Source: Minisyncoccota bacterium (lineage in GTDB: Bacteria > Patescibacteriota > Microgenomatia > UBA1400 > PJMF01). From it: a DNA stretch of 64,000 nt. A program made the position numbers and the translations under genes. Below the pieces are notes generated by a model that searched no databases, was not told where the DNA came from, and worked only from the letters and a program-made list of their open reading frames with translations. Shown one piece after another: positions 18,238 through 57,661 of the stretch. Numbering within the stretch: the stretch's first letter is position 1; every line of letters starts with the position of its first letter. Where the stretch lies: contig PJMF01000012.1 of the NCBI GenBank assembly GCA_003173865.1, positions 8,908 through 72,907 on the forward strand. The letters are read 5' to 3'.

Positions 18238-19881
18238 ATGCCCTTTACTCCTGACGCAACGCATCCAATTGCTTTTTTTTGTGCTGAGTTTGGTGTTGAT
18301 TCTGCGCTTCCTATCTATGCCGGTGGACTTGGAGTCCTTGCCGGCGACATTCTCAAAGAGGCCGCTGATCAAAACTTACCGTATGTTGGTGTAGGTCTTC
18401 TCTATCGCGGTGAAGGTGCAGTTCAAGAAATTTCCTCAGAGGGTGAACAAATTGAAAAGAACTACTCATTCGATCCCTTAAGCCTTGGACTCGAGCATGT
18501 GTACCTCGATGAAATGCCACTTTTTATTAAAGTGCATTTAACTCAACTCGATATTTGGGTGCGTTGTTGGAAGAAAAAAATTGGTGAGACGGTAACGCTC
18601 TATCTCCTCGACACAGATACGGAACAAAATCATGCGAGCGACAGACGCATTGCCCATGCGCTGTATGCGGGTTCAGAAGAAGAGGTGATTAAGCAGCAAC
18701 TCATTCTAGGAATTGGCGGGGTAAAGTTACTGCATGCGTTAGGCATTCATCCAAGTCTCTATCATGTCAATGAAGGTCGACCTGCATTTTTACATTGGCA
18801 GTTAATTCGGAGTCACATGGATGAAAATGGAATGAGCTTCAAAGATGCCAACGAACTTGCTCGGCAAAAAACCGTGTACACCAACCACACGCTTGTAGAA
18901 GCTGGCAATCAACAATTTACTGCACATTTTTTACGCGCATACGGGACATACTACGCAAAGCGCATGGGTGTTGAAATTGATGATCTTTTAAAGCCGGGCT
19001 TAGATCAAAGTGGTGAACACTTTAGCATTACCGAGTACGCGTTAAATACTTCTCGCAAAGCATCTGCTGTGAGTCAGCTGCACTATCAATTTTGTCAACA
19101 GCAATGGCCCACTGCACATTGGGTCGGGATTACAAATGGTATTCATTTGCCAACTTGGCAAAATTCTGAAGTGGCTACTCATCTGCATGACCCAAATCAA
19201 TTGTGGTTTGCTCATCTTGGACTCAAGCGCCGAACCATGGAGTACATTCAAAAAAGAACCGGCTTTGGGTATGATCCCAATCGCCTCGTTCTCACTTGGT
19301 CACGCAGAATTGCAGGATATAAACAAATTGACGGATTATTTGCTGATTTGCAAAGATTGAAATCAATTCTGTCAGTTTCTAATAAACCCGTCCAACTCTT
19401 AATTGCCGGGAAAGCTCACATCTACGATACAGCCGCTAAAAAAACATTACAAAAAATCATTCACTACCTGCAAACAGATCTGAGTGGCTATGCGCTTTTT
19501 ATTCCCAACTTAGATATTGAGCTCGATCAAATGCTCGTCAGTGGCTCTGACGTTTGGTTGAACACACCGGAATACGGCAAAGAAGCATCGGGAACTTCCG
19601 GCATGAAGGCGTTATCAAACGGTGTTTTACAATGCACCGTCGCTGACGGTTGGGCAAACGAAGTTGAGTGGAACGGAATCGGTTGGAAACTTGATCCGCA
19701 TCATTTATCAGAAAGTTTTTATCACTTTATGGAAAGAGATATTCAACCACTTTTTTATGCACGTTCGAGTGAAAGAGTTCCCCTTGAATGGGTGCGCCGC
19801 ATGCAAGAAAGCATTCAACTTTCTTCAAAGTTCTCAGCAACGCGAATGATCAAGCAATATTGTGATGAGCTCTACTCATAA
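18238..19881 (+). CDS. glgP: Alpha-glucan (glycogen/starch) phosphorylase, GT35 short form
   Basis: FFCAEFGVDSALPIYAGGLGVLAGD N-terminus and PLP-lysine region EASGTSGMKALSNG. The 18202 start in the ORF track is a TTG; ATG at 18238. Confidence 0.85.
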   Translation: MPFTPDATHPIAFFCAEFGVDSALPIYAGGLGVLAGDILKEAADQNLPYVGVGLLYRGEGAVQEISSEGEQIEKNYSFDPLSLGLEHVYLDEMPLFIKVHLTQLDIWVRCWKKKIGETVTLYLLDTDTEQNHASDRRIAHALYAGSEEEVIKQQLILGIGGVKLLHALGIHPSLYHVNEGRPAFLHWQLIRSHMDENGMSFKDANELARQKTVYTNHTLVEAGNQQFTAHFLRAYGTYYAKRMGVEIDDLLKPGLDQSGEHFSITEYALNTSRKASAVSQLHYQFCQQQWPTAHWVGITNGIHLPTWQNSEVATHLHDPNQLWFAHLGLKRRTMEYIQKRTGFGYDPNRLVLTWSRRIAGYKQIDGLFADLQRLKSILSVSNKPVQLLIAGKAHIYDTAAKKTLQKIIHYLQTDLSGYALFIPNLDIELDQMLVSGSDVWLNTPEYGKEASGTSGMKALSNGVLQCTVADGWANEVEWNGIGWKLDPHHLSESFYHFMERDIQPLFYARSSERVPLEWVRRMQESIQLSSKFSATRMIKQYCDELYS

Positions 19882-25075: not shown

Positions 25076-25909
25076 ATGATAAGATGTCCTAGTATTGTGA
25101 CACACTCTTCTCAATTTCGCTTTCACATTTTTTCTGCTGAAAAAGTTGCGGTCGAAGCTGCTCACTCCTTGGCGAAAATATTAACAGACTCGTTGTCTCA
25201 AAATAAATCCGTACTGCTATTACTCTCCGGCGGATCGGCAATTAAGATGTATGGATATATCTTTCAATTTTTAGAAACAGGAACTCATTTACAGCACTTG
25301 AACCTTGGCTTAGCTGACGAGCGTTTTGGCCCGTTTGGTCACCCAGATAGTAATGAGCAACAGTTACGTGATGCTGGCGTTATCAAAGCGTTTGAAGATC
25401 GAGGAGCTCACTTTTTTGGTATGTTAACTCAAGATCACCTTAATGAAAAAGAAACTGCTAAACGAGCTGCGACAATTTATCGCCGCCTTTTTGAAGAGGC
25501 AGATACAATCATTCTTTCGGCAGGAATTGGTGAAGACGGTCATACGCTCGGCTGGTTACCAACCCAAACACGTAAAGAATTTATGCACCTTTACGATTCA
25601 CCTGCAGACGTTACTTTTTATACACTCGATCCTCGCAACTCACCGAATCCGTTTCGCTCACGCTTGACACTTACACTTACAGCAGCCAAAAAAGCACATC
25701 GTATGTTTGTTTTTGCTCAGGGAAAAAATAAACGTATGGCTCTGCAGAAGTTAACACAAGAAGTAGGTCCAGTTCACACTATTCCTGCTCGAGCGCTCTT
25801 CCAAAGCCTGCATCCACTCGAAATTTGGACAGATCAGGTGGTAACAGGTAAAAAAATAAAAAACGTCGTCCCAACTCCTTCTTCAGATCTGAATGAAATA
25901 CTTCCGTGA
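25076..25909 (+). CDS. pgl: 6-phosphogluconolactonase (GlcN6P deaminase/6PGL family)
   Basis: LLLSGGS motif and 6PGL-family similarity. Divergent from zwf with start codons abutting (catatg). The start is uncertain: 25058 or a later non-ATG start are possible. Confidence 0.65.
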   Translation: MIRCPSIVTHSSQFRFHIFSAEKVAVEAAHSLAKILTDSLSQNKSVLLLLSGGSAIKMYGYIFQFLETGTHLQHLNLGLADERFGPFGHPDSNEQQLRDAGVIKAFEDRGAHFFGMLTQDHLNEKETAKRAATIYRRLFEEADTIILSAGIGEDGHTLGWLPTQTRKEFMHLYDSPADVTFYTLDPRNSPNPFRSRLTLTLTAAKKAHRMFVFAQGKNKRMALQKLTQEVGPVHTIPARALFQSLHPLEIWTDQVVTGKKIKNVVPTPSSDLNEILP

Positions 25910-31680: not shown

Positions 31681-31900
31681 GCCTCTATAACAAAAAGCCA
31701 CCTTCGAGAGGTGGACAAATACGACTGCATACTCCAGCCGATGTTCCTTGCTCGAGAAATTAAAAGAAGATTCAGGCAGTCTGACTTATCCGTTTAAGGA
31801 CATTACAGTTACGGCATAGCCGTGGAATCGCACCACACTTCCCCTGACGGGCTGAGGTCTGATTCTCAGTATCTTCTGCTATTTAGTTTCTGTAATCAAT
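31681..31900 (-). promoter_or_regulatory. Putative cobalamin riboswitch with intrinsic terminator, in the 5' leader of nrdB-nrdA
   Basis: Minus-strand leader contains AGGGGAAGUGUGGUGCGAUUCCACGGCUAUGCCGUAACUGUAA and AAGUCAGACUGCCUG. These resemble the cobalamin core (AGGGAA..GGUG.AA.UCC..GCC.ACUG) and the B12 box (AGYCAGG..CC.GCC). A CCACCU-loop-AGGUGG hairpin plus a U-run follows at 31689-31714, just before the Shine-Dalgarno. Confidence 0.45.
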
Positions 31901-45076: not shown

Positions 45077-46198
45077 ATGCTTTATATTCCAGAAAATCCT
45101 ACAAGAAAAAACGAATTTCAAGCTTCACTAAGCGAAGTAATAAATATCTTGTTTTCAATTCATCTTCACACTTTCCAAATTGATTCTCAAAGAAAAGAAC
45201 CAAAAGAAGAGTGGAAAAAATTTATCTTAATGGTGGAAGAATGTAAGAGAGAGAATCCTAAGAAAATGACTGAATGTATTGAGGCGCTCAATCATGCAAA
45301 AACAATAATTCTCAAAGCGAGTCAGCACTGGAATGCTCCCTTGGATTTTGGAAGTGCAGAGACCTTATATCCACATTATTCCGGCCTTGACGTAACGCCG
45401 TTCGAAAAATTAAAAAAAGTATTATATGAATCACTTCGGATCGATCTTGATGATCAAAAATCACCAAGACAAGAAAAAATAAACACTCTTATAGGTTGGA
45501 TTCATGACTTAGAAAGCGAACGGTTAACTTTTTTCAATTCTAAGACTCAAACTTTCGAGACAGTAGATTTTTCCGGTGATCAGTTTAATGAAGATTTGAA
45601 AAGAGATCTATTGCAAAGAATGAAACAATTTCTTTTGAGTCAATTAGCTACAATCATTGATGAAGGTCATACGACAGCAACTAAAAAAGTAGATGCTCAA
45701 TACAGTCAGCGAATTGAGATAAAGCATGAGATTGCAAAACAAATCCTACAATCTGTGGATGCTCTTCCGTTAACTCGAGATACTATTCATCAATTAAAGG
45801 AAATTGTACACGCAAGAGCTCGGACAACGGAAGCTTTCTTATATGGAATAAGGGAGGTGGGTATAGATTCTCTTCACTTCCTTGTCCCGAAGGAAGTTTT
45901 TAATAAAGTAGTGAAAATTAAGCAAACTAAACCTCAAGATTTTGAAACACTTCTTGCCCCTTTATATATCAATGCTTACATGCACACATTGTTAGCATTT
46001 GCCGATGTCTTTTTTACTGACAAACAAATTTACACTGATCTTCACCCATCTGCATCCTTAAAACTTCAGCTAAGAAGAACTATCGAGATTATTTCCGCTT
46101 TCCAGTCCAAGTGCGGTTCTTCTTTTTCTGATGAGAAACTGAAACCATTTCAGCAGTTTGTTGCAGACCTAAAGGCACTTGTTAATCAAGAAGATTAA
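45077..46198 (+). CDS. Hypothetical protein, predicted helical and cytoplasmic
   Basis: 373-aa ORF with no recognised domain. Confidence 0.5.
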   Translation: MLYIPENPTRKNEFQASLSEVINILFSIHLHTFQIDSQRKEPKEEWKKFILMVEECKRENPKKMTECIEALNHAKTIILKASQHWNAPLDFGSAETLYPHYSGLDVTPFEKLKKVLYESLRIDLDDQKSPRQEKINTLIGWIHDLESERLTFFNSKTQTFETVDFSGDQFNEDLKRDLLQRMKQFLLSQLATIIDEGHTTATKKVDAQYSQRIEIKHEIAKQILQSVDALPLTRDTIHQLKEIVHARARTTEAFLYGIREVGIDSLHFLVPKEVFNKVVKIKQTKPQDFETLLAPLYINAYMHTLLAFADVFFTDKQIYTDLHPSASLKLQLRRTIEIISAFQSKCGSSFSDEKLKPFQQFVADLKALVNQED

Positions 46199-46229
46199 AA
46201 TACATTGAAGTGCCGGAAATGAACATCCA

Positions 46230-46405
46230 GAATTTTTCTCTTGCCCAGCGGTACTAAAAAATGGTACACTAGCCACGTGGCATTGATTGGCTTGGCAACC
46301 GGGAGTCACAAAACAAAGTGGGCAAGCAAAATGTGCAAGCCAACTAGGGTGGAACCGCGATTCTTCATTCATTGGAGAACCGTCCCTATAAAGTATAAAG
46401 TACTT
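46230..46405 (+). promoter_or_regulatory. T-box riboswitch leader (glycine-type) upstream of glyS
   Basis: Canonical T-box sequence AGGGTGGAACCGCG at 46346-46359; UGGA is complementary to the UCCA-3' end of tRNA-Gly. Preceded by stem-loops containing GGC. Confidence 0.6.
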
Positions 46406-48303: not shown

Positions 48304-48402
48304 TGTCTCTATGTTAGTGACTAAACATTAGAGCCGGTAAATAATCCTGTAAAACTTTCGTGAGAGTTTGCAGATCCTAGTGGGTTGAAGTGGATCGAAG
48401 CG

Positions 48403-48430
48403 TTGACAATCCCAGACAGTCCATTATAAT
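48403..48430 (+). promoter_or_regulatory. Sigma-70 consensus promoter (TTGACA, 16-nt spacer, TATAAT)
   Basis: TTGACA at 48403-48408 and TATAAT at 48425-48430. The sequence CAGTCC...ATAATTT is shared with the promoter at 57184. Confidence 0.5.
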
Positions 48431-48437
48431 TTCCTAC

Positions 48438-48518
48438 ATGTTCGCAGGTCTTTTATACTCTATCTCTAGTCTTCTTCTCCTTATTATTATCAAGGCGCAT
48501 CTCGCTTGGGAGAAGTAG
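48438..48518 (+). CDS. Candidate leaderless small ORF (26 aa, hydrophobic: MFAGLLYSISSLLLLIIIKAHLAWEK)
   Basis: ATG lies 7 nt after the -10. The ORF ends before the intrinsic terminator at 48543-48567. Could instead be a leader peptide or an sRNA. Confidence 0.3.
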   Translation: MFAGLLYSISSLLLLIIIKAHLAWEK

Positions 48519-48542
48519 TATTAAAGTAAAAAGAAATACACA

Positions 48543-48567
48543 CCCCTCTCAAGCAGAGGGGTTTTTT
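48543..48567 (+). terminator. Intrinsic terminator hairpin (CCCCTCT-caagc-AGAGGGG plus T6), 17 nt upstream of the 48584 start codon
   Basis: Perfect 7-bp GC-rich stem followed by TTTTTT. Nearly identical to the hairpin at 57327-57353. Confidence 0.55.
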
Positions 48568-48583
48568 GTTTTAGAAAGGTTTT

Positions 48584-51277
48584 ATGAGTAGTAACAAAGG
48601 AACTGCGGAATCTAGGATTCTTGCTTCCAGTGAAATTTTTCATCAAGAAGAGCAGTTAAAGCAGGCGGCAGATAACTTATCTAAACGTTGTTTTAATGCA
48701 ATGTTTAACAGAGCCGTTCAAACATCTGGAAATCTTCAAGAAACAAAGCTACCTAAAAAAGGCCAAAAAGGCGAATCTATTCAAGCAAAGCCTATGCTGG
48801 GATACCGTCGACCAGGCGAGTTTTTTTCTGTCCAAGGTATAGATTCTCAGCAAGAACTTGAAGCTATTTTTAATAGTCTTATTCTCAATGCCCTGCGTAA
48901 ACTCGCAGCGGAAGCAACAACTCCCGAAGAGCGAAAATTGAAAACCGAAATGCTAGGGATGGTGTTACCCGATTTTATTAGAGCATTAGTTTTAGATGGC
49001 GAGTTCATTGATCATATTCATGCAGATGATATTTCAAACATAGTAGATATTGCTTTAGATTGGTTCCTCCATCCGGAATTAGTCTCTCTGACACAAATTA
49101 AAATCGGTTTTGGAGGTAATGAGGAAGCGAACAGTCGTATGCCTGCTTATCCAATCAGTGCAATTCGTACTGCCGAAAGAGTCCAAGAAACTTTTGGTAG
49201 ACATCGAAACTGGGCGCTCTTAAAAGAGTTATATAAACTGACCGAAAAATCTGAAGACATTCGCCAGGCTTTAGAACTACACACAGAAGAATTTCTTTTT
49301 GTGAAAAGACAGGATGATGCTTCAATACCAACTCACGATTCAAGTACATACAGTGAGTTTGTACGAGACGAGCTTGCGAACTGTCAATATGTACGTGTTC
49401 AAGATGTTACTATGATCTTGCTAAAAACTTTTGCAGCTCTTGGTCACCCTTTAACCGAAAAAGAACAGGTTTCTCTGGCCCAAAAATATCACTTCACGGA
49501 CCAAACTCCTACTTTAGTATTTTTTAATGCTGCTCACGCAGCAATTACTATTAACTCGATGAATCGAGAGGCGGTCTTACAAACCCGCGAATACAACAAA
49601 GCTTTGATCACTGCCTACATGTCGGAATTTCATCCAGATCTTCCTATGCCTATATTTCAAAATGATCGAGATTGGAGTGAACATGACTCTTTCACCAAAC
49701 TCATGATTCTCTATGCCCAATTTGTCATTGAAAGTCATAGAGACGAAATGGGTGGAGTCGATGATCAGTTAGAGTCATTTGAAGCAAATCACCGTCAGAA
49801 TGCAAAAAGTACTCATTATGGAATGAATCCTGCCAAAATTTACGGATCTCTTCATCCATATTTCTTTGGTGATTCTCCCAATACCGAGAGCGGTGACCAA
49901 CTTCCTTTCAACAACGTGATGACTCCTCTTTTCCAACCTCGTCATATCGTTGGCCATCAAGGTGTCCCTGAGGTTACTTTTGGTGTCTATAGAGACGTTT
50001 TCAAAAGACATGCCAATCTACGAGATCTAGTGGAATGGTTAAAAAGAACAGAAAATTTGTCAAAAACATCCCTCTCTCAACTAGCAATAGAAGTTGATAC
50101 AAAGGTCATGGAAGCAGAAACACCTTCTTATGGCAAGAGGTTAATCGACTATATCACTAAAAAGGTGATGCCAGAAGCCAATATTGTTTCAACATCCAAA
50201 AACAAATTGCTGGAGAAGGCAAAGCATTTAAGGAATGAAGAGAACTCAGAAGTAGCCAGACAAGAATGGCTCTCCTTTTGTGCAGAACTTCAGTCTGAAG
50301 ATATTTTTGCTAAAACTGGAGTGACTGCTGACGAAGTAAGTAATGCGTTAATTCAAGTTCAAACTTGGCAGAGTGAAGCAAGAAATTTAAACGAACGTCT
50401 CTTTGCAACTACTGACCCAGATCAGCGTTTTGAAATCACAGAGCAATTGGCCGATTCATCTATTCCTATTCCAGTGCGAAGCACTGTGCGTATTGGAACA
50501 TCTGTGGGAAAACATGCCACTTATTATCTCAAAGAAGGTGATACACCTTTAGAAGGTTTCCACTCGGCTGATCAAATTTCATTAGTAAACTATACTCAAC
50601 GCTTTACTGCTGCAAGTTTGAATAAGCGCACTTTAGAAGGAACTGTTCCTTACACACAAAAAAATGTCTTGCCTGCTCTCATTGATAGTGACACCTCAAG
50701 AGGATGGGATATTTTTGCAGCCGCTTTAGCCGATCAATTGGGAACTATCTTTGGTGAAGAAGTATTTGCTCAATGGATGTCGGAAGACGTTGATAAAATG
50801 GCGAATCTTTATCGAGGCTCTGTTCAGGAAGAGCTAACATTTCAAGGAGATAAAGTAGAAAAAGCATCTCACGTTCATAATTTTCTTAGTCAAGGTATTC
50901 AAAACATCGCAGAAGAAAGAATTCAGGTCATCTTGGATGAAGCAGCACATCAAGGTATTACTTTAGAAACTCAGGGAGTCCGCCACTATGTATGGTCCGC
51001 CTTAGTTGGCTCATGGACCACTGAAGGTGGTAAGCAAGCGATTACTGATTCAGAAGTCATTGTCGACGAGATTCGAAGCACTATGTCCGACTTTATGGTC
51101 ATACTTCACGATGTCGCTCAGGCAAAAGGATATCATGGTTCTTCTGAAGAATTGGCCAAGGATGCTGGATGGATTGCTCTAGCAGAAAGAGAGTATCAAA
51201 AGGTAATGAGAAAAATATTCGCTGAGGATCAAGTAAACAGCGACGCTGTGCTGTTTGCTGCTGTGGCTGAGATTTAA
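48584..51277 (+). CDS. Large hypothetical protein (897 aa), soluble, no recognisable domain
   Basis: Long uninterrupted ORF with a GAAAGG Shine-Dalgarno. No TM segments and no known catalytic motifs recognised by eye. Confidence 0.6.
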   Translation: MSSNKGTAESRILASSEIFHQEEQLKQAADNLSKRCFNAMFNRAVQTSGNLQETKLPKKGQKGESIQAKPMLGYRRPGEFFSVQGIDSQQELEAIFNSLILNALRKLAAEATTPEERKLKTEMLGMVLPDFIRALVLDGEFIDHIHADDISNIVDIALDWFLHPELVSLTQIKIGFGGNEEANSRMPAYPISAIRTAERVQETFGRHRNWALLKELYKLTEKSEDIRQALELHTEEFLFVKRQDDASIPTHDSSTYSEFVRDELANCQYVRVQDVTMILLKTFAALGHPLTEKEQVSLAQKYHFTDQTPTLVFFNAAHAAITINSMNREAVLQTREYNKALITAYMSEFHPDLPMPIFQNDRDWSEHDSFTKLMILYAQFVIESHRDEMGGVDDQLESFEANHRQNAKSTHYGMNPAKIYGSLHPYFFGDSPNTESGDQLPFNNVMTPLFQPRHIVGHQGVPEVTFGVYRDVFKRHANLRDLVEWLKRTENLSKTSLSQLAIEVDTKVMEAETPSYGKRLIDYITKKVMPEANIVSTSKNKLLEKAKHLRNEENSEVARQEWLSFCAELQSEDIFAKTGVTADEVSNALIQVQTWQSEARNLNERLFATTDPDQRFEITEQLADSSIPIPVRSTVRIGTSVGKHATYYLKEGDTPLEGFHSADQISLVNYTQRFTAASLNKRTLEGTVPYTQKNVLPALIDSDTSRGWDIFAAALADQLGTIFGEEVFAQWMSEDVDKMANLYRGSVQEELTFQGDKVEKASHVHNFLSQGIQNIAEERIQVILDEAAHQGITLETQGVRHYVWSALVGSWTTEGGKQAITDSEVIVDEIRSTMSDFMVILHDVAQAKGYHGSSEELAKDAGWIALAEREYQKVMRKIFAEDQVNSDAVLFAAVAEI

Positions 51278-51307
51278 TATTTGATCGTGCTAAAATGAGA
51301 CATTTGT

Positions 51308-52429
51308 ATGAAAACAGACATCATTGAAGTATTGACTAAGCTTGTTTCATTCCAAACAGTGTCAGCTACAAGTGATCAAGAAAAAAACGCATTCCACGCT
51401 CAGCAATTTGTTGAAGCACACGAATACATCAAGCATTTATTTCAAGACACTCCCTTAATTGTTGAGACTATTGAAACTGCTGGTAAAAAAACTCTTACTG
51501 TTTCAAATAAAAAAACGATCGCTCCTGATATTGCAATGATTGTGCATTTAGACGTAGTCCCAGCCGGGGAGAGCTTATGGACAATGCGACAAGAGGGCGA
51601 TAGGCTCTTTGGTCGAGGCGTTTCCGACATGAAGGGCAGTATTACCGCCTGTTTAATAGTGATGAGAGAATTAGTAAAAATGAAATCAAATGATTTGCCT
51701 TCAGTCATGTTAATTATCACCCCCGACGAAGAAATCGGTGGTGCCTCAATGAAATTTCTACGTGACAAATTAAAATACTCTCCTCAATTTGTGCTTTGTC
51801 CTGACGGCGGTTATGGGTGGAAAATGGTTACGAATGCAAAAGGATGCCTACAGTTTCACTTTCAAACAACTGGAAAATCTGCTCACGCCTCACGACTCGC
51901 TGAAGGAGTGAATGCAGCAGAACCCCTGATTGAATTGTACCAGCAGCTACGTCGTGTTTTTCCCCATCAAAACGAAGCAGCTTGGGAAACAACAACTTTT
52001 AATTTAGGAGCCTTTCATACAGGTCAAGCCGCTAATCAAGTTCCAGATTTGGCAGAAATGAAGCTAGACTTTCGTTTCACTAATCAAAGTGAACGAGCGC
52101 TAATTGAGAAAGAACTCCAATCTGCAATCAACGCAAGTCCGTTAGAAATTAAAACTCTATCAGTCGTTGATGGTCATTTTTTTGAATCCAATCCTAATCA
52201 TCAAATCACGAAAAAATTCCTTTATTGTGTAGAAAAAGTGATCGGCAAACAGATTGAATTTGTAAAAGAGTACGGTGCTTCTGACGCAAGGTTCTTTACA
52301 GACGTGCCAACAGTTGTTTTGATCGGAGACGGGAAATATCATCATTCTTCAAAAGAAGAAATGTCTTTAACGAGTTTGGAACAATATGCCGAAGCAGTAC
52401 TAACATTTATTAAGAGTTATCGCCAATAA
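51308..52429 (+). CDS. M20-family metallopeptidase/deacylase (ArgE/DapE-like)
   Basis: HLDVVP metal-ligand motif and GRGVSDMKG catalytic region. Confidence 0.8.
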   Translation: MKTDIIEVLTKLVSFQTVSATSDQEKNAFHAQQFVEAHEYIKHLFQDTPLIVETIETAGKKTLTVSNKKTIAPDIAMIVHLDVVPAGESLWTMRQEGDRLFGRGVSDMKGSITACLIVMRELVKMKSNDLPSVMLIITPDEEIGGASMKFLRDKLKYSPQFVLCPDGGYGWKMVTNAKGCLQFHFQTTGKSAHASRLAEGVNAAEPLIELYQQLRRVFPHQNEAAWETTTFNLGAFHTGQAANQVPDLAEMKLDFRFTNQSERALIEKELQSAINASPLEIKTLSVVDGHFFESNPNHQITKKFLYCVEKVIGKQIEFVKEYGASDARFFTDVPTVVLIGDGKYHHSSKEEMSLTSLEQYAEAVLTFIKSYRQ

Positions 52430-53381
52430 GGGTGAGAAAATTTGGCATCAAAACCTCGCGAGGTCTATTCGTTTTTCTTTCCCAGATCTGTCTTTGAAGG
52501 TCAGCCAATCCCTGCGTACCACGTTCTTGAGTAATGGCTTGAGCTCTTAATAAAACTATTGCTGCGAGCATCGCATTCGTTATTTCAGGATGATTTTGAA
52601 CAGAGACAATGGGCCTATCTTTATAACTCAGCATTTGATTCTTGCCGGCACAATTAGATGCAAGTACATCGGCATTTTTGGGTTTTTGAGAAACATGTTG
52701 CGAATGAGTCGCTGAAATAGTGAGAGAATCTCCTTCATAACAATGAAGTAAAGGTTCCGATTTCGCCCTTTCAGTCAGTTGAATATCAACAGGGCCAATC
52801 TCCCGTTCTCTATTACCTCCAGTAGAAGTCATCCAAGAAACCTCTCCGCCCTGACAAAACGCAAACAACTGATGACTAAAACAAATGAGTAAACTCGGAG
52901 TTTGACTTAACGACAACACTTTATCAAAAGCAAGTACCCGTCTAATCCAAGGAGCATCCTGATGATGCATATCATGGATTGTTGTGACCATTGCCTCGGA
53001 TCCAGACATAATCACCCCATCGTACTCTTCCAACTGACGAGGAGGAGATGTTTCACCCTGACTTGCATGCCATACTTCAAAACGCTCATCATGTGGACTA
53101 AAACCAAGTTGGTAACGAAAAATATCGGAAACCGTATGATTACCCGAATGACCTACAGCGCCTATTTCGAGTAATTTTCTGCGCTCAGAGTTGAGTGGAG
53201 CAAAAAGACCATTTCCCCACCGTAATGCTAACTCTACAAACAAGATTTTAGATTGAGTCCTCAATTTATCGGCAACAACTCTTATCATTTCACGATGATG
53301 TGTTTCAGTATCTGCAATCTCTTCCTCACAACATTGTTTCTCTTGCTGAGTTAATGGAGAACTTATTTCTGCGAATGCCAT
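52410..53381 (-). CDS. Class I glutamine amidotransferase-like / peptidase C26 (gamma-glutamyl hydrolase-like) protein
   Basis: Nucleophile elbow LLICFSHQLF (Cys-x3-Gln) and a downstream NHPE His-Glu pair. About 100-aa N-terminal extension. Confidence 0.6.
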   Translation of the reverse strand: MAFAEISSPLTQQEKQCCEEEIADTETHHREMIRVVADKLRTQSKILFVELALRWGNGLFAPLNSERRKLLEIGAVGHSGNHTVSDIFRYQLGFSPHDERFEVWHASQGETSPPRQLEEYDGVIMSGSEAMVTTIHDMHHQDAPWIRRVLAFDKVLSLSQTPSLLICFSHQLFAFCQGGEVSWMTSTGGNREREIGPVDIQLTERAKSEPLLHCYEGDSLTISATHSQHVSQKPKNADVLASNCAGKNQMLSYKDRPIVSVQNHPEITNAMLAAIVLLRAQAITQERGTQGLADLQRQIWERKTNRPREVLMPNFLTLIGDNS

Positions 53382-53384
53382 ACA

Positions 53385-54494
53385 TTAATCCAATATTAGT
53401 TTCTCTACCGTATATTTCTTCAGTTTCATTTCATCGACTTCAAAACCCAACCCAGGCGCTGTCGGCACTTGAATATTTCCCTCGAGGTCAACAGTAAAAC
53501 TGTCTTTTACCAAATCATCTTTGTAGTAAAAACTATTTGGAGACATGTCTGCGGGATCAATAAAGTTCGGCAACGAAGCAACTGCAATGTTAAACGCTCG
53601 TCCAATACCTGTCTCAAGCATGCCACCACACCATACCCCCACATGTTGGGCTTGGCAAAGATCGTGAATTTTTTTACTTTCTAAAATACCGCCTACACGA
53701 CCGGGTTTGATGTTAATAATTTTGCAAGCACCAAGAAAAAGTGCTTTACGTGCATCTTCCACTGACAAAATGCTTTCATCTAAACAAATTGGTGTTTTAA
53801 TTTGCTTTTGCAGCACAGAGTGATCGACAATGTCGTCATCTCCAAGTGGTTGCTCGATCATTGTCAGATTATATTGATCAAGTTCTTTAAAAATCTCGAT
53901 CTGGTCGAGTGTAAACACAGAGTTTGCATCAACCATCAAGGGAACGTCACCAAACCTCGCACGCACTGCTTTGACCAGCTTGACGTCCCAACCAGGCTTA
54001 ATTTTCAGCTTCATACGCTGATACCCTTGAGAAATTCTTAACTCAATTTCTTCCAAAGTCGCCTCAATAGAATCCTTAATCCCAATACTTTCTCCTGCTC
54101 CAATCTTTGCGCGCGTGCCACCAAGCAAAGCCGACAGAGAACGTTCTTCTTGCAAAGACTGGACCATCAATAATGCTGTCTCTAAACCTGTTTTCGCAAA
54201 ATTATGTTTTTTAATAATTTTTAATTCATCCATGACCGCTTGGACTGTGGTGAACTCCTTATTCAAGACGAGCGGCGCAATATAATCGCGCAACACTAAC
54301 ATACAAATATCAGTCGTATCTGGCTTATAAAATGGATACGGCATTGCAGCGGCTTCCCCATATCCAATGAGTCCATCTGCCATTTCAACTTGAACGATCA
54401 CGGTGGCTTTACTTTCCAATTTCCACGAGCTCACTGCAAAAGAAGTGACCATCGGCACATCGACTTTGTAGAGAGTAATTTTTTTTATTTTCAT
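53385..54494 (-). CDS. Enolase-superfamily enzyme (MR/MLE family; dipeptide epimerase / OSBS / N-succinyl-amino-acid racemase-like)
   Basis: KIKPG catalytic lysine pair. Metal ligands in DANSVF, MIEQPL and CLDES. N-terminal capping domain. Start overlaps the upstream stop (ATGA). Confidence 0.8.
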   Translation of the reverse strand: MKIKKITLYKVDVPMVTSFAVSSWKLESKATVIVQVEMADGLIGYGEAAAMPYPFYKPDTTDICMLVLRDYIAPLVLNKEFTTVQAVMDELKIIKKHNFAKTGLETALLMVQSLQEERSLSALLGGTRAKIGAGESIGIKDSIEATLEEIELRISQGYQRMKLKIKPGWDVKLVKAVRARFGDVPLMVDANSVFTLDQIEIFKELDQYNLTMIEQPLGDDDIVDHSVLQKQIKTPICLDESILSVEDARKALFLGACKIINIKPGRVGGILESKKIHDLCQAQHVGVWCGGMLETGIGRAFNIAVASLPNFIDPADMSPNSFYYKDDLVKDSFTVDLEGNIQVPTAPGLGFEVDEMKLKKYTVEKLILD

Positions 54495-56125
54495 GAAATG
54501 ACAACCTCTCGTAATTGAATTAATTCTCTGAGTGCACGTTCTAGAGACATTGTTTTTTGTTTTTCATTTACAAAAGCGAGGGCTCGATCAGCACCATTTT
54601 GTTTTTGTTGTAACACCCACTGTGGATAAGCCAAGAAAGTTTGCTCTTCTGTAGATAATCCTTCGGCAGCTAAATCCAGGATTCTTTGTGTAAATGTATA
54701 AACCGAAAGATCCTCTACTACTCCGTCTAATCCTTGTTCAATAGCTACATCGCGTAACTTACTGAGTTGTCCCCAAGGAAAATGTTCAATGTATTTTTTT
54801 GTTTTATCTAAATTGCGAATTAAGCCAGCTTGCAATGCCGATGGACTTGTTGCCACCGAAAGTGCAATTTCTTTTCCCGCAGCATAAAGCTCTCGATCAG
54901 GAAGATTTGATCCAGGCGCTCTGCCCTCGATATACATAAAATGCGCATGTGCTTCAAAGATTTCTTCTACTTTCATTTGCGAAGTTTCTTTGCACGCTGC
55001 AACAAACTCCGCAACTGGAAAACCATCTTTTTTCAATGAATAACGAATACGACCTCCTGCTTCAAACTGCGCAAACTGCAGTACTTCCATATGCGCAATT
55101 TCTGGCGAAACTTCATACGCTTTAATAGCAGTTCCCGTAATAATCTCCGATAAATTCCGAGCTTTCCAAGTCTTCCCATCTAAATAATCGAGGACTGGTG
55201 GATTCCCATCCACGATCATGATGTCATCTTTTGCGTTTTTGTAACCAACTGCGCTCTGACTTGGCATCACAAAATAAATACCACTATCGCCACCAAACAT
55301 CCATTGAAAATATTGTGCGAGATTTTGAAATGGTTTATCGGGAAAACGAATCAAACGTCGATCACCAGCAACAGTTGACCCACTCATCATGCGCTCCCAC
55401 ATCATCAAACGATTTTCTTTGTATTGAGAAATCTTTCCTTCCTCAAAAGGACTGTTTGCAAAAAGTGCAATATTGGCCGCACTCGCACCGATGATCACAG
55501 TAAGTGCATCAGCTGCTTGAGAAACAGCAACTTGAGTACTGGGACTATTTTGCGCTCGCGCATCAATTCCAGCCGAATGATCCCAACCACGCTGCCACAA
55601 AAAGTCATACACTCCTTTCGGCACGACAAATTTTTTGTATGTCTTCATGTCTCTTGGAGCAAGTGGGTGAATTGATAGATTTATGGCAAAAGCATCTTCA
55701 GCTTGTAACGCCTTTTGAGTAGTTGAAATATCAAGTTGAATCGCTTTATGTAATTCCTGGAGCGTTTCGAATGGTGGCAAAGCTGTCTCTAATAAATTGA
55801 ATCCATTGTCCAAACCTTGCTCACCAAGATCTTGGCTGACAACTCCTACCGCAACTGTTTTCCCTTTTTTATCCTTTAAATTGTGAAGATGATCAAATGT
55901 GTGACGATGACTTGCCTGTTTGCTTAATTCATTAAAAAACACATCAGTAACATGATGAGAACTCCCGTCCTTTTTAGAAACGATAGTTTTCTCAAGTTCA
56001 GCACCAAATTTTTCGTTTTTCTTGACTAATTTTGACACAGGTGATTTTAACATATCTTTGCTTGAATATTTTGCTTTTTTAAAAAAATGCTGTACAATTC
56101 TGGGACATGTCGAGGCATGAAACAT
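54491..56125 (-). CDS. Glutamate--cysteine ligase family protein, plant/proteobacterial GshA type
   Basis: ALFANSPFEEGK closely matches the plant-type GCL segment ALFANSPFTEGK. Also NEKFGAELE and NGFNLLETALPPFETLQELH resemble the GTEHEKFGFE and SGAPLETLHQ regions. Alternative ATG at 56053. Confidence 0.6.
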   Translation of the reverse strand: MFHASTCPRIVQHFFKKAKYSSKDMLKSPVSKLVKKNEKFGAELEKTIVSKKDGSSHHVTDVFFNELSKQASHRHTFDHLHNLKDKKGKTVAVGVVSQDLGEQGLDNGFNLLETALPPFETLQELHKAIQLDISTTQKALQAEDAFAINLSIHPLAPRDMKTYKKFVVPKGVYDFLWQRGWDHSAGIDARAQNSPSTQVAVSQAADALTVIIGASAANIALFANSPFEEGKISQYKENRLMMWERMMSGSTVAGDRRLIRFPDKPFQNLAQYFQWMFGGDSGIYFVMPSQSAVGYKNAKDDIMIVDGNPPVLDYLDGKTWKARNLSEIITGTAIKAYEVSPEIAHMEVLQFAQFEAGGRIRYSLKKDGFPVAEFVAACKETSQMKVEEIFEAHAHFMYIEGRAPGSNLPDRELYAAGKEIALSVATSPSALQAGLIRNLDKTKKYIEHFPWGQLSKLRDVAIEQGLDGVVEDLSVYTFTQRILDLAAEGLSTEEQTFLAYPQWVLQQKQNGADRALAFVNEKQKTMSLERALRELIQLREVVIS

Positions 56126-56202
56126 TTACTTTTAGTTTTTTCTTTTTTACCAAACTTCCTCAAAGGGAGCTTTGCTAATTGAACTGAAAAAGCAACGCAA
56201 TA

Positions 56203-56225
56203 ACTCCCTAAAAGGGAGTTTTTTT
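56203..56225 (+). terminator. Terminator-like hairpin (ACTCCCT-aaa-AGGGAGT plus T7) between divergent genes, 20 nt upstream of the 56245 start; possible attenuator
   Basis: Stem plus U-run. An upstream AGGGAG at 56164-56169 could pair alternatively with the CTCCCT arm. Confidence 0.4.
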
Positions 56226-56244
56226 ATTTTAAAAAGGAGCAAAA

Positions 56245-57174
56245 ATGATTTCAACTCAAGAAGCAACTAGTCAACGAATCTCTGAAATGGCGCAAGTTAT
56301 TAACAACGCGCTATCCGCAACTCAAGAAATGATGCCCAAATTGATTAATAAAACAGTTCCAGTTGAAAATGCCTCAGGAACCGACATTATTATGGGTATC
56401 GGTCTCGTTTCGAACGGCAAAGTGAGCAGGGGCTTAAATCCGAGTGCCATTCCAATGGCCATAGCAGCCACCAATTTGCAGCGTGAAATCCAACAAAATG
56501 ATTATCGAAGCAAAATTAAGGTGTTAATTGCGGACACGTACGCAAAACAATTCCACAGAGAATATATTAATGCTGCTTACGCCGATGACGATGAACTTGA
56601 TCGAGATCCCGTAGCAGAAGCTGCTGTTTCGATCGAGCAAGCTCTAGGATTGCTGTTCATTGCTCTCGGAGCAACCGCAGATGTTGAAATTATTCGCACA
56701 TCGGATCTTGAAACTCCTAATTTTGAAACTTATGAAGAACAAGAAACCTATCACCTCAGTCGCGCTGTTGAAGAAGGTGCCGGTCTCATCGTCGGTTGGT
56801 CAAGCGAACGAGCACCATTGCCAGGAATGCCACCAGTTCGCGATGAAACCGTGTTTCATCGACATATGGATAAAGAACATCCAGATCTTCGCGGTATGTC
56901 AGGGAGGTTATACACCGTCGAAGGCCTTAGTTTAACTGACCAAATAAAAGGTCAGGCTCAATATGTCCCTCCTTACTTCACGACTCGAGTTGAAGCAGCT
57001 CTGGGCACAATTGTCGATTTAGAAGGACTAATAGACAAAAAAAACCAATTAAAAAATTTCTTTAAAGAGGTGGGGAGAGCACTTCGTAAAATTTTGCCAG
57101 GCGAAAAGACGGATGGGAAAGGTGATTTGCAGATCGTTCATGAACTGGTGAGAGAAATCGCTACTCAGGTGTAA
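56245..57174 (+). CDS. Hypothetical protein (309 aa)
   Basis: ORF with an AAGGAG Shine-Dalgarno. No recognised motif. Confidence 0.5.
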   Translation: MISTQEATSQRISEMAQVINNALSATQEMMPKLINKTVPVENASGTDIIMGIGLVSNGKVSRGLNPSAIPMAIAATNLQREIQQNDYRSKIKVLIADTYAKQFHREYINAAYADDDELDRDPVAEAAVSIEQALGLLFIALGATADVEIIRTSDLETPNFETYEEQETYHLSRAVEEGAGLIVGWSSERAPLPGMPPVRDETVFHRHMDKEHPDLRGMSGRLYTVEGLSLTDQIKGQAQYVPPYFTTRVEAALGTIVDLEGLIDKKNQLKNFFKEVGRALRKILPGEKTDGKGDLQIVHELVREIATQV

Positions 57175-57183
57175 AATCTGCAT

Positions 57184-57211
57184 TTGACTCAGTCCGAAAA
57201 TCACATATAAT
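57184..57211 (+). promoter_or_regulatory. Sigma-70 consensus promoter (TTGACT, 16-nt spacer, TATAAT)
   Basis: TTGACT at 57184-57189 and TATAAT at 57206-57211. Same architecture and shared sequence as the promoter at 48403. Confidence 0.5.
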
Positions 57212-57221
57212 TTAATGTCAT

Positions 57222-57296
57222 ATGTTTTCAAAGAATTACGTCATTGCTGTTATGCGCCAAGCCCTGCACGCAGGGGGAGGGTTTTGGATTTCGTAA
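57222..57296 (+). CDS. Candidate leaderless small ORF (24 aa: MFSKNYVIAVMRQALHAGGGFWIS)
   Basis: ATG lies 10 nt after the -10. It overlaps a GCCCTGC-acg-CAGGG hairpin and ends before the terminator at 57327. Could be a leader peptide or part of an sRNA. Confidence 0.25.
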   Translation: MFSKNYVIAVMRQALHAGGGFWIS

Positions 57297-57326
57297 AAAT
57301 GTAAAACATTTATTTAAAAATCAAAA

Positions 57327-57353
57327 CCCCTCTCCAAACCAGAGGGGTTTTTT
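57327..57353 (+). terminator. Intrinsic terminator (CCCCTCT-ccaaacc-AGAGGGG plus T6), 20 nt before the 57374 start
   Basis: 7-bp GC stem plus a U-run. Near-identical to the hairpin at 48543. Confidence 0.55.
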
Positions 57354-57373
57354 GTAAAAGGAAGGAGTTAGAA

Positions 57374-57661
57374 ATGGAACCTACAATGGATTACAGATTA
57401 AAATTTACGGAAAATGCTTTTAGGCAAGACGACGATTCTGAGTTTTTTGTGATGAGTGCAGCCGTTGAACTCCTACTAGAAGCTCGAAGTGCTCAAGAAG
57501 AAGCATTGTATTGGGAAGCTTTATGTGATTTATTTCCAGCAGCTTATGAAATTATCCGTAAAGAAATCCTTTTTCACGAGTTTACTTCACGAGATTTCAC
57601 TCAGACAGAGCGAAAAATTAGTGATCGTTATCGGCTCGTATTTGAACATCCTGAAAAATGA
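57374..57661 (+). CDS. Hypothetical small acidic protein (95 aa)
   Basis: ORF with a GGAAGGAG Shine-Dalgarno. Its 3' end overlaps recJ convergently by 44 bp. Confidence 0.4.
   Translation: MEPTMDYRLKFTENAFRQDDDSEFFVMSAAVELLLEARSAQEEALYWEALCDLFPAAYEIIRKEILFHEFTSRDFTQTERKISDRYRLVFEHPEK

Follow-up and report, generated by a model that had tools for sequence, protein, structure and literature searches.

Ribosome-mediated transcription attenuation through leader peptides is known classically from enterobacteria, in the leaders of leu, ilvGMEDA, ilvBN, pheA/pheST, trp, his and thr, and is represented in Rfam by Leu_leader and Phe_leader (RF01859). The stretch of DNA analysed here (the window) is 64,000 nucleotides of the forward strand of a Minisyncoccota bacterium (assembly GCA_003173865.1, contig PJMF01000012.1, positions 8,908 to 72,907), in which a block at 48.4-57.7 kb carries three short plus-strand modules, called A, C and B in their order along the DNA, each combining a promoter-like site, a short open reading frame (ORF) and an intrinsic terminator directly before a gene. 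Here it is proposed, as the likely reading, that A, C and B are three ribosome-mediated leader-peptide transcription attenuators, one for each plus-strand unit of the block. Module A, whose short ORF reads LLLLIII, resembles the leu and ilv leaders, and C, with FTFSFFFF, resembles pheL; however, the window leaders stay below the Rfam gathering score, the leader ORFs lie near the predicted 5' end and have no Shine-Dalgarno sequence (SD), the regulated genes are near-orphans rather than genes of Leu or Phe biosynthesis, and the host is not an enterobacterium.

In Corynebacterium glutamicum, the leader peptide of ilvBNC is itself leaderless, with the transcription start site 1 nt from the IlvL start codon and no ribosome-binding site (PMC11857589). 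Attenuators have been predicted in Streptomyces before trpS and leuS, which are aminoacyl-tRNA synthetase genes (PMC1262725), and leaderless poly-Cys short ORFs of mycobacteria are amino-acid-responsive attenuators (bioRxiv 10.1101/834739). Leaders of the window type share with these actinobacterial systems an ATG or GTG 6-10 nt past the -10 hexamer, in six of six cases, but differ in the GC content of the window (41.5%), in their compact spacing and in the genes they regulate; moreover, the mycobacterial Cys ORFs have no obvious terminators, whereas those of the window leaders are canonical. The T-box (RF00230) also senses tRNA charging by competition between an antiterminator and a terminator directly upstream of a gene; however, Stem I, the specifier loop and the T-box sequence are all missing from A, B and C. 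In Sinorhizobium meliloti, the RNA (rnTrpL) and the peptide (peTrpL) of a leader-peptide attenuator act in trans (PMC6614838, PMC7298713), the terminated leader transcript being of a size similar to that predicted here, and to the window modules this is an analogy only. By such a known route, a small-RNA or small-protein role could exist alongside attenuation.

Anatomy of the three modules

The modules and the genes behind them are composed as follows.

48403-48430, plus strand: promoter of module A, TTGACA-16-TATAAT, 12/12 consensus and the top match in the window
48438-48518, plus strand: leader ORF of module A, 26 codons, MFAGLLYSISSLLLLIIIKAHLAWEK, with its ATG 7 nt past the -10 and no SD
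48474-48515, plus strand: 1:2 hairpin (anti-antiterminator) of module A, CUUCUCCU at 48474-81 pairing with GGGAGAAG at 48508-15
48500-48559, plus strand: antiterminator of module A, 48500-48512 pairing with 48546-48559, core GCUUGGGAG at 48504-12 with CUCUCAAGC at 48546-54
48542-48572, plus strand: intrinsic terminator of module A, stem-loop 48542-48562, ACCCCTCT-CAAGC-AGAGGGGT, 8-bp stem followed by T6GT4
48584-52429, plus strand: transcription unit behind A, an 897-aa near-orphan gene (48584-51277) and a gene for an ArgE/DapE-family M20 deacylase (51308-52429)
56070-56098, plus strand: putative promoter of module C, TTTGCT-17-TACAAT, weak (8/12), its -10 (56093-98) matching 5/6 and lying 8 nt before the ATG
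56107-56178, plus strand: leader ORF of module C, MSRHETFTFSFFFFTKLPQRELC, with a run of four Phe
56151-56209, plus strand: alternative pairings of module C, 1:2 hairpin 56151-60 with 56164-74, antiterminator AGGGAG at 56164-69 with CUCCCU at 56204-09
56202-56227, plus strand: intrinsic terminator of module C, AACTCCCT-AAA-AGGGAGTT and T7, in a divergent intergenic region
56245-57174, plus strand: 309-aa gene behind C, uncharacterised, with a fold like the catalytic domain of tyrosyl-tRNA synthetase (TyrRS; AlphaFold 2 (AF2) model, pLDDT 91.7)
57184-57211, plus strand: promoter of module B, TTGACT-16-TATAAT, 11/12 consensus
57222-57296, plus strand: short ORF of module B, 24 codons, MFSKNYVIAVMRQALHAGGGFWIS, with its ATG 10 nt past the -10
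57257-57335, plus strand: alternative pairings of module B, 1:2 hairpin 57257-65 with 57278-87, antiterminator GGGGGAGGGUUUUG at 57274-87 with 57321-35
57323-57353, plus strand: terminator of module B, 11-bp stem (hairpin 57323-57351), terminator-like on the minus strand too
57374-57661, plus strand: 95-aa orphan gene, with a strong SD at 57360-67 and ATG at 57374

The terminators of all three modules are perfect, GC-rich stems of 8-11 bp with T-tracts, ending 5-13 nt before the SD of the next gene. The SD (48573-79) and ATG (48584) of the 897-aa gene lie directly 3' of the terminator of A, and those of the 309-aa gene (56234-39 and 56245) just past that of C. Between the end of the -10 and the terminator stem there are 111 nt in A and 113 nt in B. 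The preliminary description of this DNA had reported two modules, at 48403 and 57184, and their promoters, their ORFs with an ATG 7-10 nt past the -10 and their terminators were all found again. It had also seen them as bracketing the block; A and B do lie at its ends, but a third module of the same design, C (about 56093-56228), which had gone unnoticed, lies inside. The promoter is the least certain part of C. For B, an alternative start at ATG 57215, which would put Cys-Cys into the stall window, was rejected, as it is merely 3 nt past the -10.

The frequency of these elements was compared with 100 shuffles of the whole window, on both strands. Promoter-like sites matching at least 11 of 12 positions were seen three times against 1.5 expected, perfect-stem terminators five times against 0.87 expected, and pairs of a promoter and a terminator 80-160 nt apart twice against 0.00 in the 100 shuffles; the observation is therefore real and not due to chance. 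The motif CCCCTCT-N(3-12)-AGAGGGG has exactly two occurrences, with 0 expected. Furthermore, the window and 92 loci were scanned without bias for perfect terminators at most 50 nt before an ORF of at least 80 aa, combined with a short ORF of 10-40 codons whose start is 6-11 nt past a -10 that matches at least 5 of 6 positions, and the window yielded exactly A, C and B.

These counts bear on the view that ordinary promoters and terminators merely happen to stand close together here, the terminators ending neighbouring genes (for B, the 309-aa gene and recJ). The hairpin of B is indeed terminator-like on both strands and lies downstream of both genes. Nevertheless, such a promoter-terminator co-occurrence was absent from the shuffles, A and C stand between divergent genes, where no gene upstream runs in the same direction and could be ended by them, the antiterminator complementarity described below is significant, and the same design recurs in other genomes, so this view is disfavoured and very improbable.

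The preliminary description had called the two modules paralogous, and this is true of about 36 nt at the terminator. The likeness of A and B is a single stretch (48534-48569 against 57318-57355; 32 of 38 columns, score 45 against 16±2 for shuffled sequences), while the bodies of the transcripts align at chance level (score 14 against 14.7 shuffled), and the CAGTCC sequence given as common to both stands at different offsets from the hexamers in A and B and is not an aligned element. Further copies of the modules were found neither in the window nor in 81 loci. A common origin of the block, also suggested earlier, is not borne out either: only these ~36 nt are shared, the sensing parts are unrelated, C lies inside, and the GC content is 0.40 in the block against 0.43 in its flanks. 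Horizontal transfer of the block was also considered, and the same GC values give no clear sign of a recent event.

Another explanation is that the modules are free-standing genes for small RNAs of about 130 nt and/or for small proteins, such as a membrane peptide or a type I toxin, with their position being secondary. Strong promoters and terminators do delimit transcripts of ~130 nt, the peptide of A is largely hydrophobic, and attenuator RNAs and peptides are known to act in trans, as rnTrpL and peTrpL do in S. meliloti (PMC6614838, PMC7298713). However, there are no further copies and the conservation between A and B is limited to the terminator; no minus-strand promoter-like site, as a type I antitoxin would have, was found within 48400-48600 or 57180-57360; and the peptide of A is not kept upstream of the one homolog of the 897-aa gene. 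Three of three terminators end at the short distance from an SD given above, the alternative folds target the 5' arm of the terminator, and the hydrophobicity of the A peptide follows from its Leu and Ile codons. The ilv and leu leader peptides are likewise hydrophobic through their Leu and Ile codons. The small RNA and the small hydrophobic protein, both offered as options in the preliminary description, are thus not the supported ones, and free-standing genes are quite unlikely; the terminated RNAs of ~130 nt, or the peptides, could also act in trans.

Mutually exclusive folds and the predicted ribosome switch

In the attenuation proposed here, transcription would begin 7-10 nt past the -10, and the short ORF would be translated as a leaderless or nearly leaderless message. 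If the ribosome reads the ORF to its end, or if no ribosome loads at all, hairpin 1:2 would form together with terminator 3:4, transcription would terminate 5-13 nt before the SD of the gene, and an RNA of ~130 nt would be released. When the matching charged tRNA is scarce, the ribosome would stall on the regulatory codons and mask strand 1, strand 2 would pair with the 5' arm of the terminator as an antiterminator, and the gene would be transcribed. Leu codons would play this role in A, perhaps together with the first Ile codon, and Phe codons in C; module B would have the same RNA switch and the same placement of the ORF, with no codon run.

The minimum free energy fold of each module consists of the upstream hairpin (1:2) and the terminator (3:4), and the antiterminator uses the 5' arm of the terminator, the two states being mutually exclusive in all three. 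For A this fold has -32.8 kcal/mol (z = -2.9). The Leu run of its ORF (L12-L15, 48471-48482) is followed by an Ile run (I16-I18, 48483-48491), the Leu codons themselves are strand 1 of the 1:2 hairpin, and constrained folding brings out the antiterminator when the 5' strand is blocked as far as 48482-48497. The antiterminator of C appears in the same way once the 5' strand of its 1:2 hairpin is masked. A transcript of B that ends before the 3' arm of the terminator takes the antiterminator fold (-28.4 kcal/mol), and the full-length transcript the terminator state (1:2 and 3:4; -35.4 kcal/mol). Compared with dinucleotide shuffles, the duplex between the upstream leader and the 5' arm of the terminator is stronger than expected in A (-14.6 kcal/mol, p = 0.007), in B (-20.0 kcal/mol, none of 1000 shuffles as good, p < 0.001) and in C (p = 0.018).

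The effect of a ribosome was simulated at every codon by forcing a footprint from -18 to +13 of the A-site start to be unpaired and computing the probability of the terminator stem, with the following outcome.

Leader A: 0.97 without a ribosome; collapse at S10-I16, with the minimum at L12-L14 (0.16-0.19); 0.93-0.98 outside S10-I16
Leader C, frame of ATG 56107: 0.93 without a ribosome; collapse at T6-F12, lowest at F7-F11 (0.03-0.07), with 0.31 at F12; 0.93-0.94 outside T6-F12
Leader C, frame of ATG 56117 (reading MKHLLLVFSFLPNFLKGSFAN): 0.93 without a ribosome; collapse at H3-F8, LLL included (0.02-0.26)
Leader B: 0.70 without a ribosome; collapse at F2-A14, lowest at A9-A14 (0.00-0.08); 0.98 from H16 through the stop

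A ribosome placed at the stop codon always led to termination. Runs of at least four identical residues occur in 9 of the 582 small ATG ORFs of the window, the leaders of A and C among them, and Phe would be the amino acid sensed by C if the leaderless ATG 56107 is used as in the other leaders. In all six leaders compared (A, B, C and those of the loci L082, L053 and L062, described below), the ORF starts 6-10 nt past the -10 and ends before the terminator, and in five of them (A, C, L082, L053 and L062) runs or amino-acid-biased codons lie inside the computed antitermination window. Among the options of the preliminary description, attenuator leaders for the 897-aa and 95-aa genes and a shared regulatory logic are those that hold up: mutually exclusive antiterminator and terminator folds are present in all modules, the codon runs of A and, if ATG 56107 is used, of C sit where a stalled ribosome is predicted to flip the fold, and equivalent leaders are found before the homolog and in relatives.

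Searches with Rfam at gathering thresholds returned one tRNA and nothing else in the whole window. The best cis-regulatory match of a permissive search of the whole window was Phe_leader on C (56116-56228, 41 bits; E = 0.0022 in the whole window and 1e-5 locally), the gathering score of the family being 55 bits; module A, too, can be aligned to this model over its full length, at 29 bits. A and C resemble Phe_leader in design and are not members. Permissive searches of A and B gave just weak, terminator-driven matches and no fitting family, and RF00230 matched none of the three modules, whether at E <= 10 or at E <= 1. Because all three leaders are below the Rfam thresholds, standard annotation pipelines would miss them.

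The absence of a family bears in turn on a further alternative, that a sensor other than the ribosome (a protein, a tRNA, a small molecule or a nucleotide-pool effect on RNA polymerase) sets the same switch and the ORFs are incidental. It is unlikely overall and most serious for module B, where it is a real possibility, since B combines a very strong alternative fold (-20 kcal/mol, 0/1000 shuffles) with no codon run. The organism also has candidate leaders of such a kind, namely a sub-threshold T-box before the gene for prolyl-tRNA synthetase (ProRS) and, in front of nrdB, an AdoCbl-like element followed by a terminator, and the Phe codons of C could be a by-product of a T-rich tract. However, A and B match no Rfam family, the placement of the ORF is the same in six of six leaders, and the position of codon runs or bias inside the antitermination window in five would not be expected of a non-translational sensor.

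Related leaders and the regulated genes

Sensing by a translating ribosome is also suggested by leaders outside the window. A search of 5.8 billion proteins gave a single homolog of the 897-aa protein (P0009, found in another sample and 30% identical), and the gene for this homolog follows that of cysteinyl-tRNA synthetase on its contig (L082). In front of it lies a leader with the promoter TTGCAA-17-TATACT, a GTG-start ORF (MINNIFQIIMVLLMVRVSAAESA) 9-10 nt past the -10, 1:2/2:3/3:4 pairings, a terminator that abuts the start codon and a stall window at V11-L12. Between the 897-aa gene and its homolog, the design of the leader appears to be kept, and its sequence not. The 897-aa protein itself has no Pfam, NCBIfam or PDB match, its AF2 model is unusable (pLDDT 35), and profile searches against the PDB and against the family of the 309-aa protein were negative.

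The ProRS of the window is 66-80% identical to that of 80 metagenome-assembled genomes (MAGs). Three of these relatives (L053, L054 and L062) have a leader with TTGACA-17-TACAAT and, 6-7 nt on, the ATG of an ORF (MIQKASHNSFYFYFYFTASGGVGSCA or MTATNSHRWFYFYFIFTALGGVGGNV) that encodes FYFYFYF or FYFYFIF, followed by a terminator just before the gene (14843-15000 in L053 and 14835-15010 in L062). The operon in L053 encodes a weakly DAHP-synthase-like protein, prephenate dehydrogenase, prephenate dehydratase and AroB (tyrA, pheA, aroB), and in the simulation the terminator of the relatives' leaders forms only after the ribosome clears the F/Y codons. These leaders were not flagged by the Rfam searches. 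A Phe/Tyr leader before tyrA-pheA-aroB reads as textbook attenuation of an aromatic operon, with the same leaderless build as the window modules. The ProRS loci of the 80 relatives share no neighbouring genes with the window.

The public labels of these relatives are inconsistent. The MAGs of L053, L054 and L062 are labelled 'uncultured Gammaproteobacteria' or 'bacterium', and the ProRS relatives as a whole Patescibacteria, Pacebacteria, Woesebacteria, Chloroflexota, 'uncultured Pseudomonadales', 'Gammaproteobacteria' and 'Vitreimonas'; one 'Pseudomonadales bacterium' bears the isolate name HK-STAS-PATE-17. Some of these taxon labels are probably wrong. Separately, a MAG labelled Anaerolineaceae has, at about 15062 (plus strand) of locus L078, a short ORF (MMFCIVRDANANTLPSPRTRRRVVLG) with an RRR run 6-9 nt past a -10, followed by a terminator that directly precedes a 445-aa gene, and this could be an attenuator of the Arg type.

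For the 309-aa protein behind C, an exhaustive HMMER search gave 17 distant homologs (28-36% identity), and the AlphaFold model was built from their alignment. In Foldseek, the top matches of this model were the TyrRS catalytic domains 1tya/4ts1 (E = 1.7e-5, probability 1.0, TM about 0.44), followed by cyclodipeptide synthase and tryptophanyl-tRNA synthetase (TrpRS). The position equivalent to the HIGH motif would be S-x-G-L-G, and no KMSKS is evident. A scan of the contigs of GTDB representatives found nothing for this gene; a sub-alignment was used for the metagenome scan, alignment A2 being too divergent for pattern scanning. The family (loci L083-L093) is small and unannotated, with proteins of about 270-340 aa and degenerate HIGH and KMSKS.

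In seven of seven other loci fetched (five distinct sequences), the homologs of the 309-aa gene belong to an operon headed by a T-box (56-93 bits, E = 1e-10 to 1e-19) with the specifier UAC, a Tyr codon, so the family is regulated by tRNA charging elsewhere. Its operon partners are class I/II aminotransferases, an MFS transporter, an Asp/Glu/hydantoin racemase and canonical TyrRS, and in L090/L091 a tRNA-Tyr gene lies between the T-box and the family gene. In the window, a short-ORF attenuator appears to take the place of the T-box before the 309-aa gene. The TyrRS-like fold and the Tyr T-boxes link the gene to aromatic amino acids or tRNA, not specifically to Phe, and the family may be a new tRNA-Tyr-linked or Tyr-salvage enzyme.

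Several points weigh against leader-peptide attenuation at these modules. No leader attains the Rfam gathering score, homologous leaders are too few to test for covariation, the footprint model approximates a kinetic process by an equilibrium, and none of the regulated genes is known to be connected with the supply of Leu or Phe. No run of regulatory codons falls in the critical window of B (A9-A14), and with no ribosome present the terminator of B forms with a probability of just 0.70. In C, the promoter is weak (8/12), the T-rich tract that holds the Phe run doubles as the antisense of the A-rich 5' untranslated region of a divergent 544-aa gene, the frame from ATG 56117 would place LLL-V-F, and not Phe, in the stall window, and the leader has no Tyr codons although the homologs of its gene are Tyr-controlled. 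The antiterminator complementarity of L082 alone is not significant (p = 0.12).

The 95-aa protein behind B has no family match, even at E = 0.1, and an identical copy of its gene was found in Logan SRR490139. Its ORF and the 3' end of the convergent recJ overlap by 44 nt, so read-through past B would go antisense into recJ. Read on the minus strand, the terminator-like hairpin of B lies ~270 nt downstream of the recJ stop.

The minus strand between A and B encodes a GCS2-like ligase, an enolase-superfamily enzyme of the OSBS/NSAR type (TIGR01928, 343 bits) and a class I amidotransferase. The combination of NSAR with an M20 deacylase recalls D-to-L amino-acid salvage, and such salvage by the enzymes of the block would fit a control by amino-acid starvation. 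A promoter-like site on the minus strand (56226-56254, TTGAAA-17-TAAAAT, 10/12) overlaps the start of the 309-aa gene and would drive the operon of these three genes through the antisense of module C (56126-56219); the divergent transcripts would overlap by ~100 nt, and antisense effects or transcriptional interference are possible.

Elsewhere in the window, the sub-threshold T-box (46173-46390, plus strand; 30.9 bits, E = 0.0048; canonical core AGGGUGGAACCGCG...CCGUCCCU) lies directly upstream of the ProRS gene (46407). As no intrinsic terminator is visible at this element, it may act on translation. The T-boxes of actinobacterial ileS act on translation. On the minus strand, an AdoCbl-II-like element (31860-31676; 27 bits, E = 0.045) precedes a perfect terminator (CCACCT-CTCGA-AGGTGG and a T-run, 31714-31698) and, ~12 nt further, the SD and start codon (ATG, 31676) of an nrdB whose product has an N-terminal ATP-cone, with nrdA next; position 31730, called by the program as the start of the nrdB ORF, is probably not the true one. 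Four of the window's five perfect terminators are 5' regulatory, and the one at 19536 is intragenic. Additionally, a region of 668 bp (25166-25833) has no long ORF mapped, yet it is coding-like on the plus strand, with 6-phosphogluconolactonase-like motifs beside G6PD, and may be a gene that the ORF map missed, e.g., through an unusual start or a frameshift.

Meaning for the lineage and the gene families

The mechanism proposed here is classical; what is of interest is the leaderless design in an unstudied lineage, the near-orphan targets and the apparent exchange of a T-box for a leader peptide at the TyrRS-like family. To our knowledge, most documented cases of leaderless leader-peptide attenuation come from Actinobacteria, and its reach would be extended to a lineage with compact genomes, whose relatives would use it for an aromatic amino-acid operon.

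A broader, joint reading of these observations is doubtful as a whole. In a poorly studied lineage with small genomes, whose ProRS relatives include Patescibacteria-labelled MAGs, leaderless leader-peptide attenuation would be the main amino-acid-sensing device, and intrinsic terminators may be used almost only for 5' regulation. The near-orphan cluster would be wired by the three attenuators to Leu and aromatic starvation and form a hitherto undescribed amino-acid salvage pathway; the cluster would comprise the 897-aa protein, the TyrRS-like enzyme without HIGH and KMSKS, which may be tRNA-dependent, and the 95-aa protein, and possibly also the M20 deacylase, the NSAR-like racemase, the GCS2-like ligase and the amidotransferase; at the 309-aa gene, the leader peptide would have replaced a Tyr T-box.

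For the three unannotated proteins, their regulatory setting offers the sole hint at function. From it, the 897-aa family, present here and in one other sample, is predicted to respond to starvation for Leu or branched-chain amino acids, and the 309-aa TyrRS-like family to be tied to aromatic amino acids or to tRNA charging. The latter would also be a case of regulatory replacement, the same gene family being under a T-box in some lineages and under a leader peptide here.

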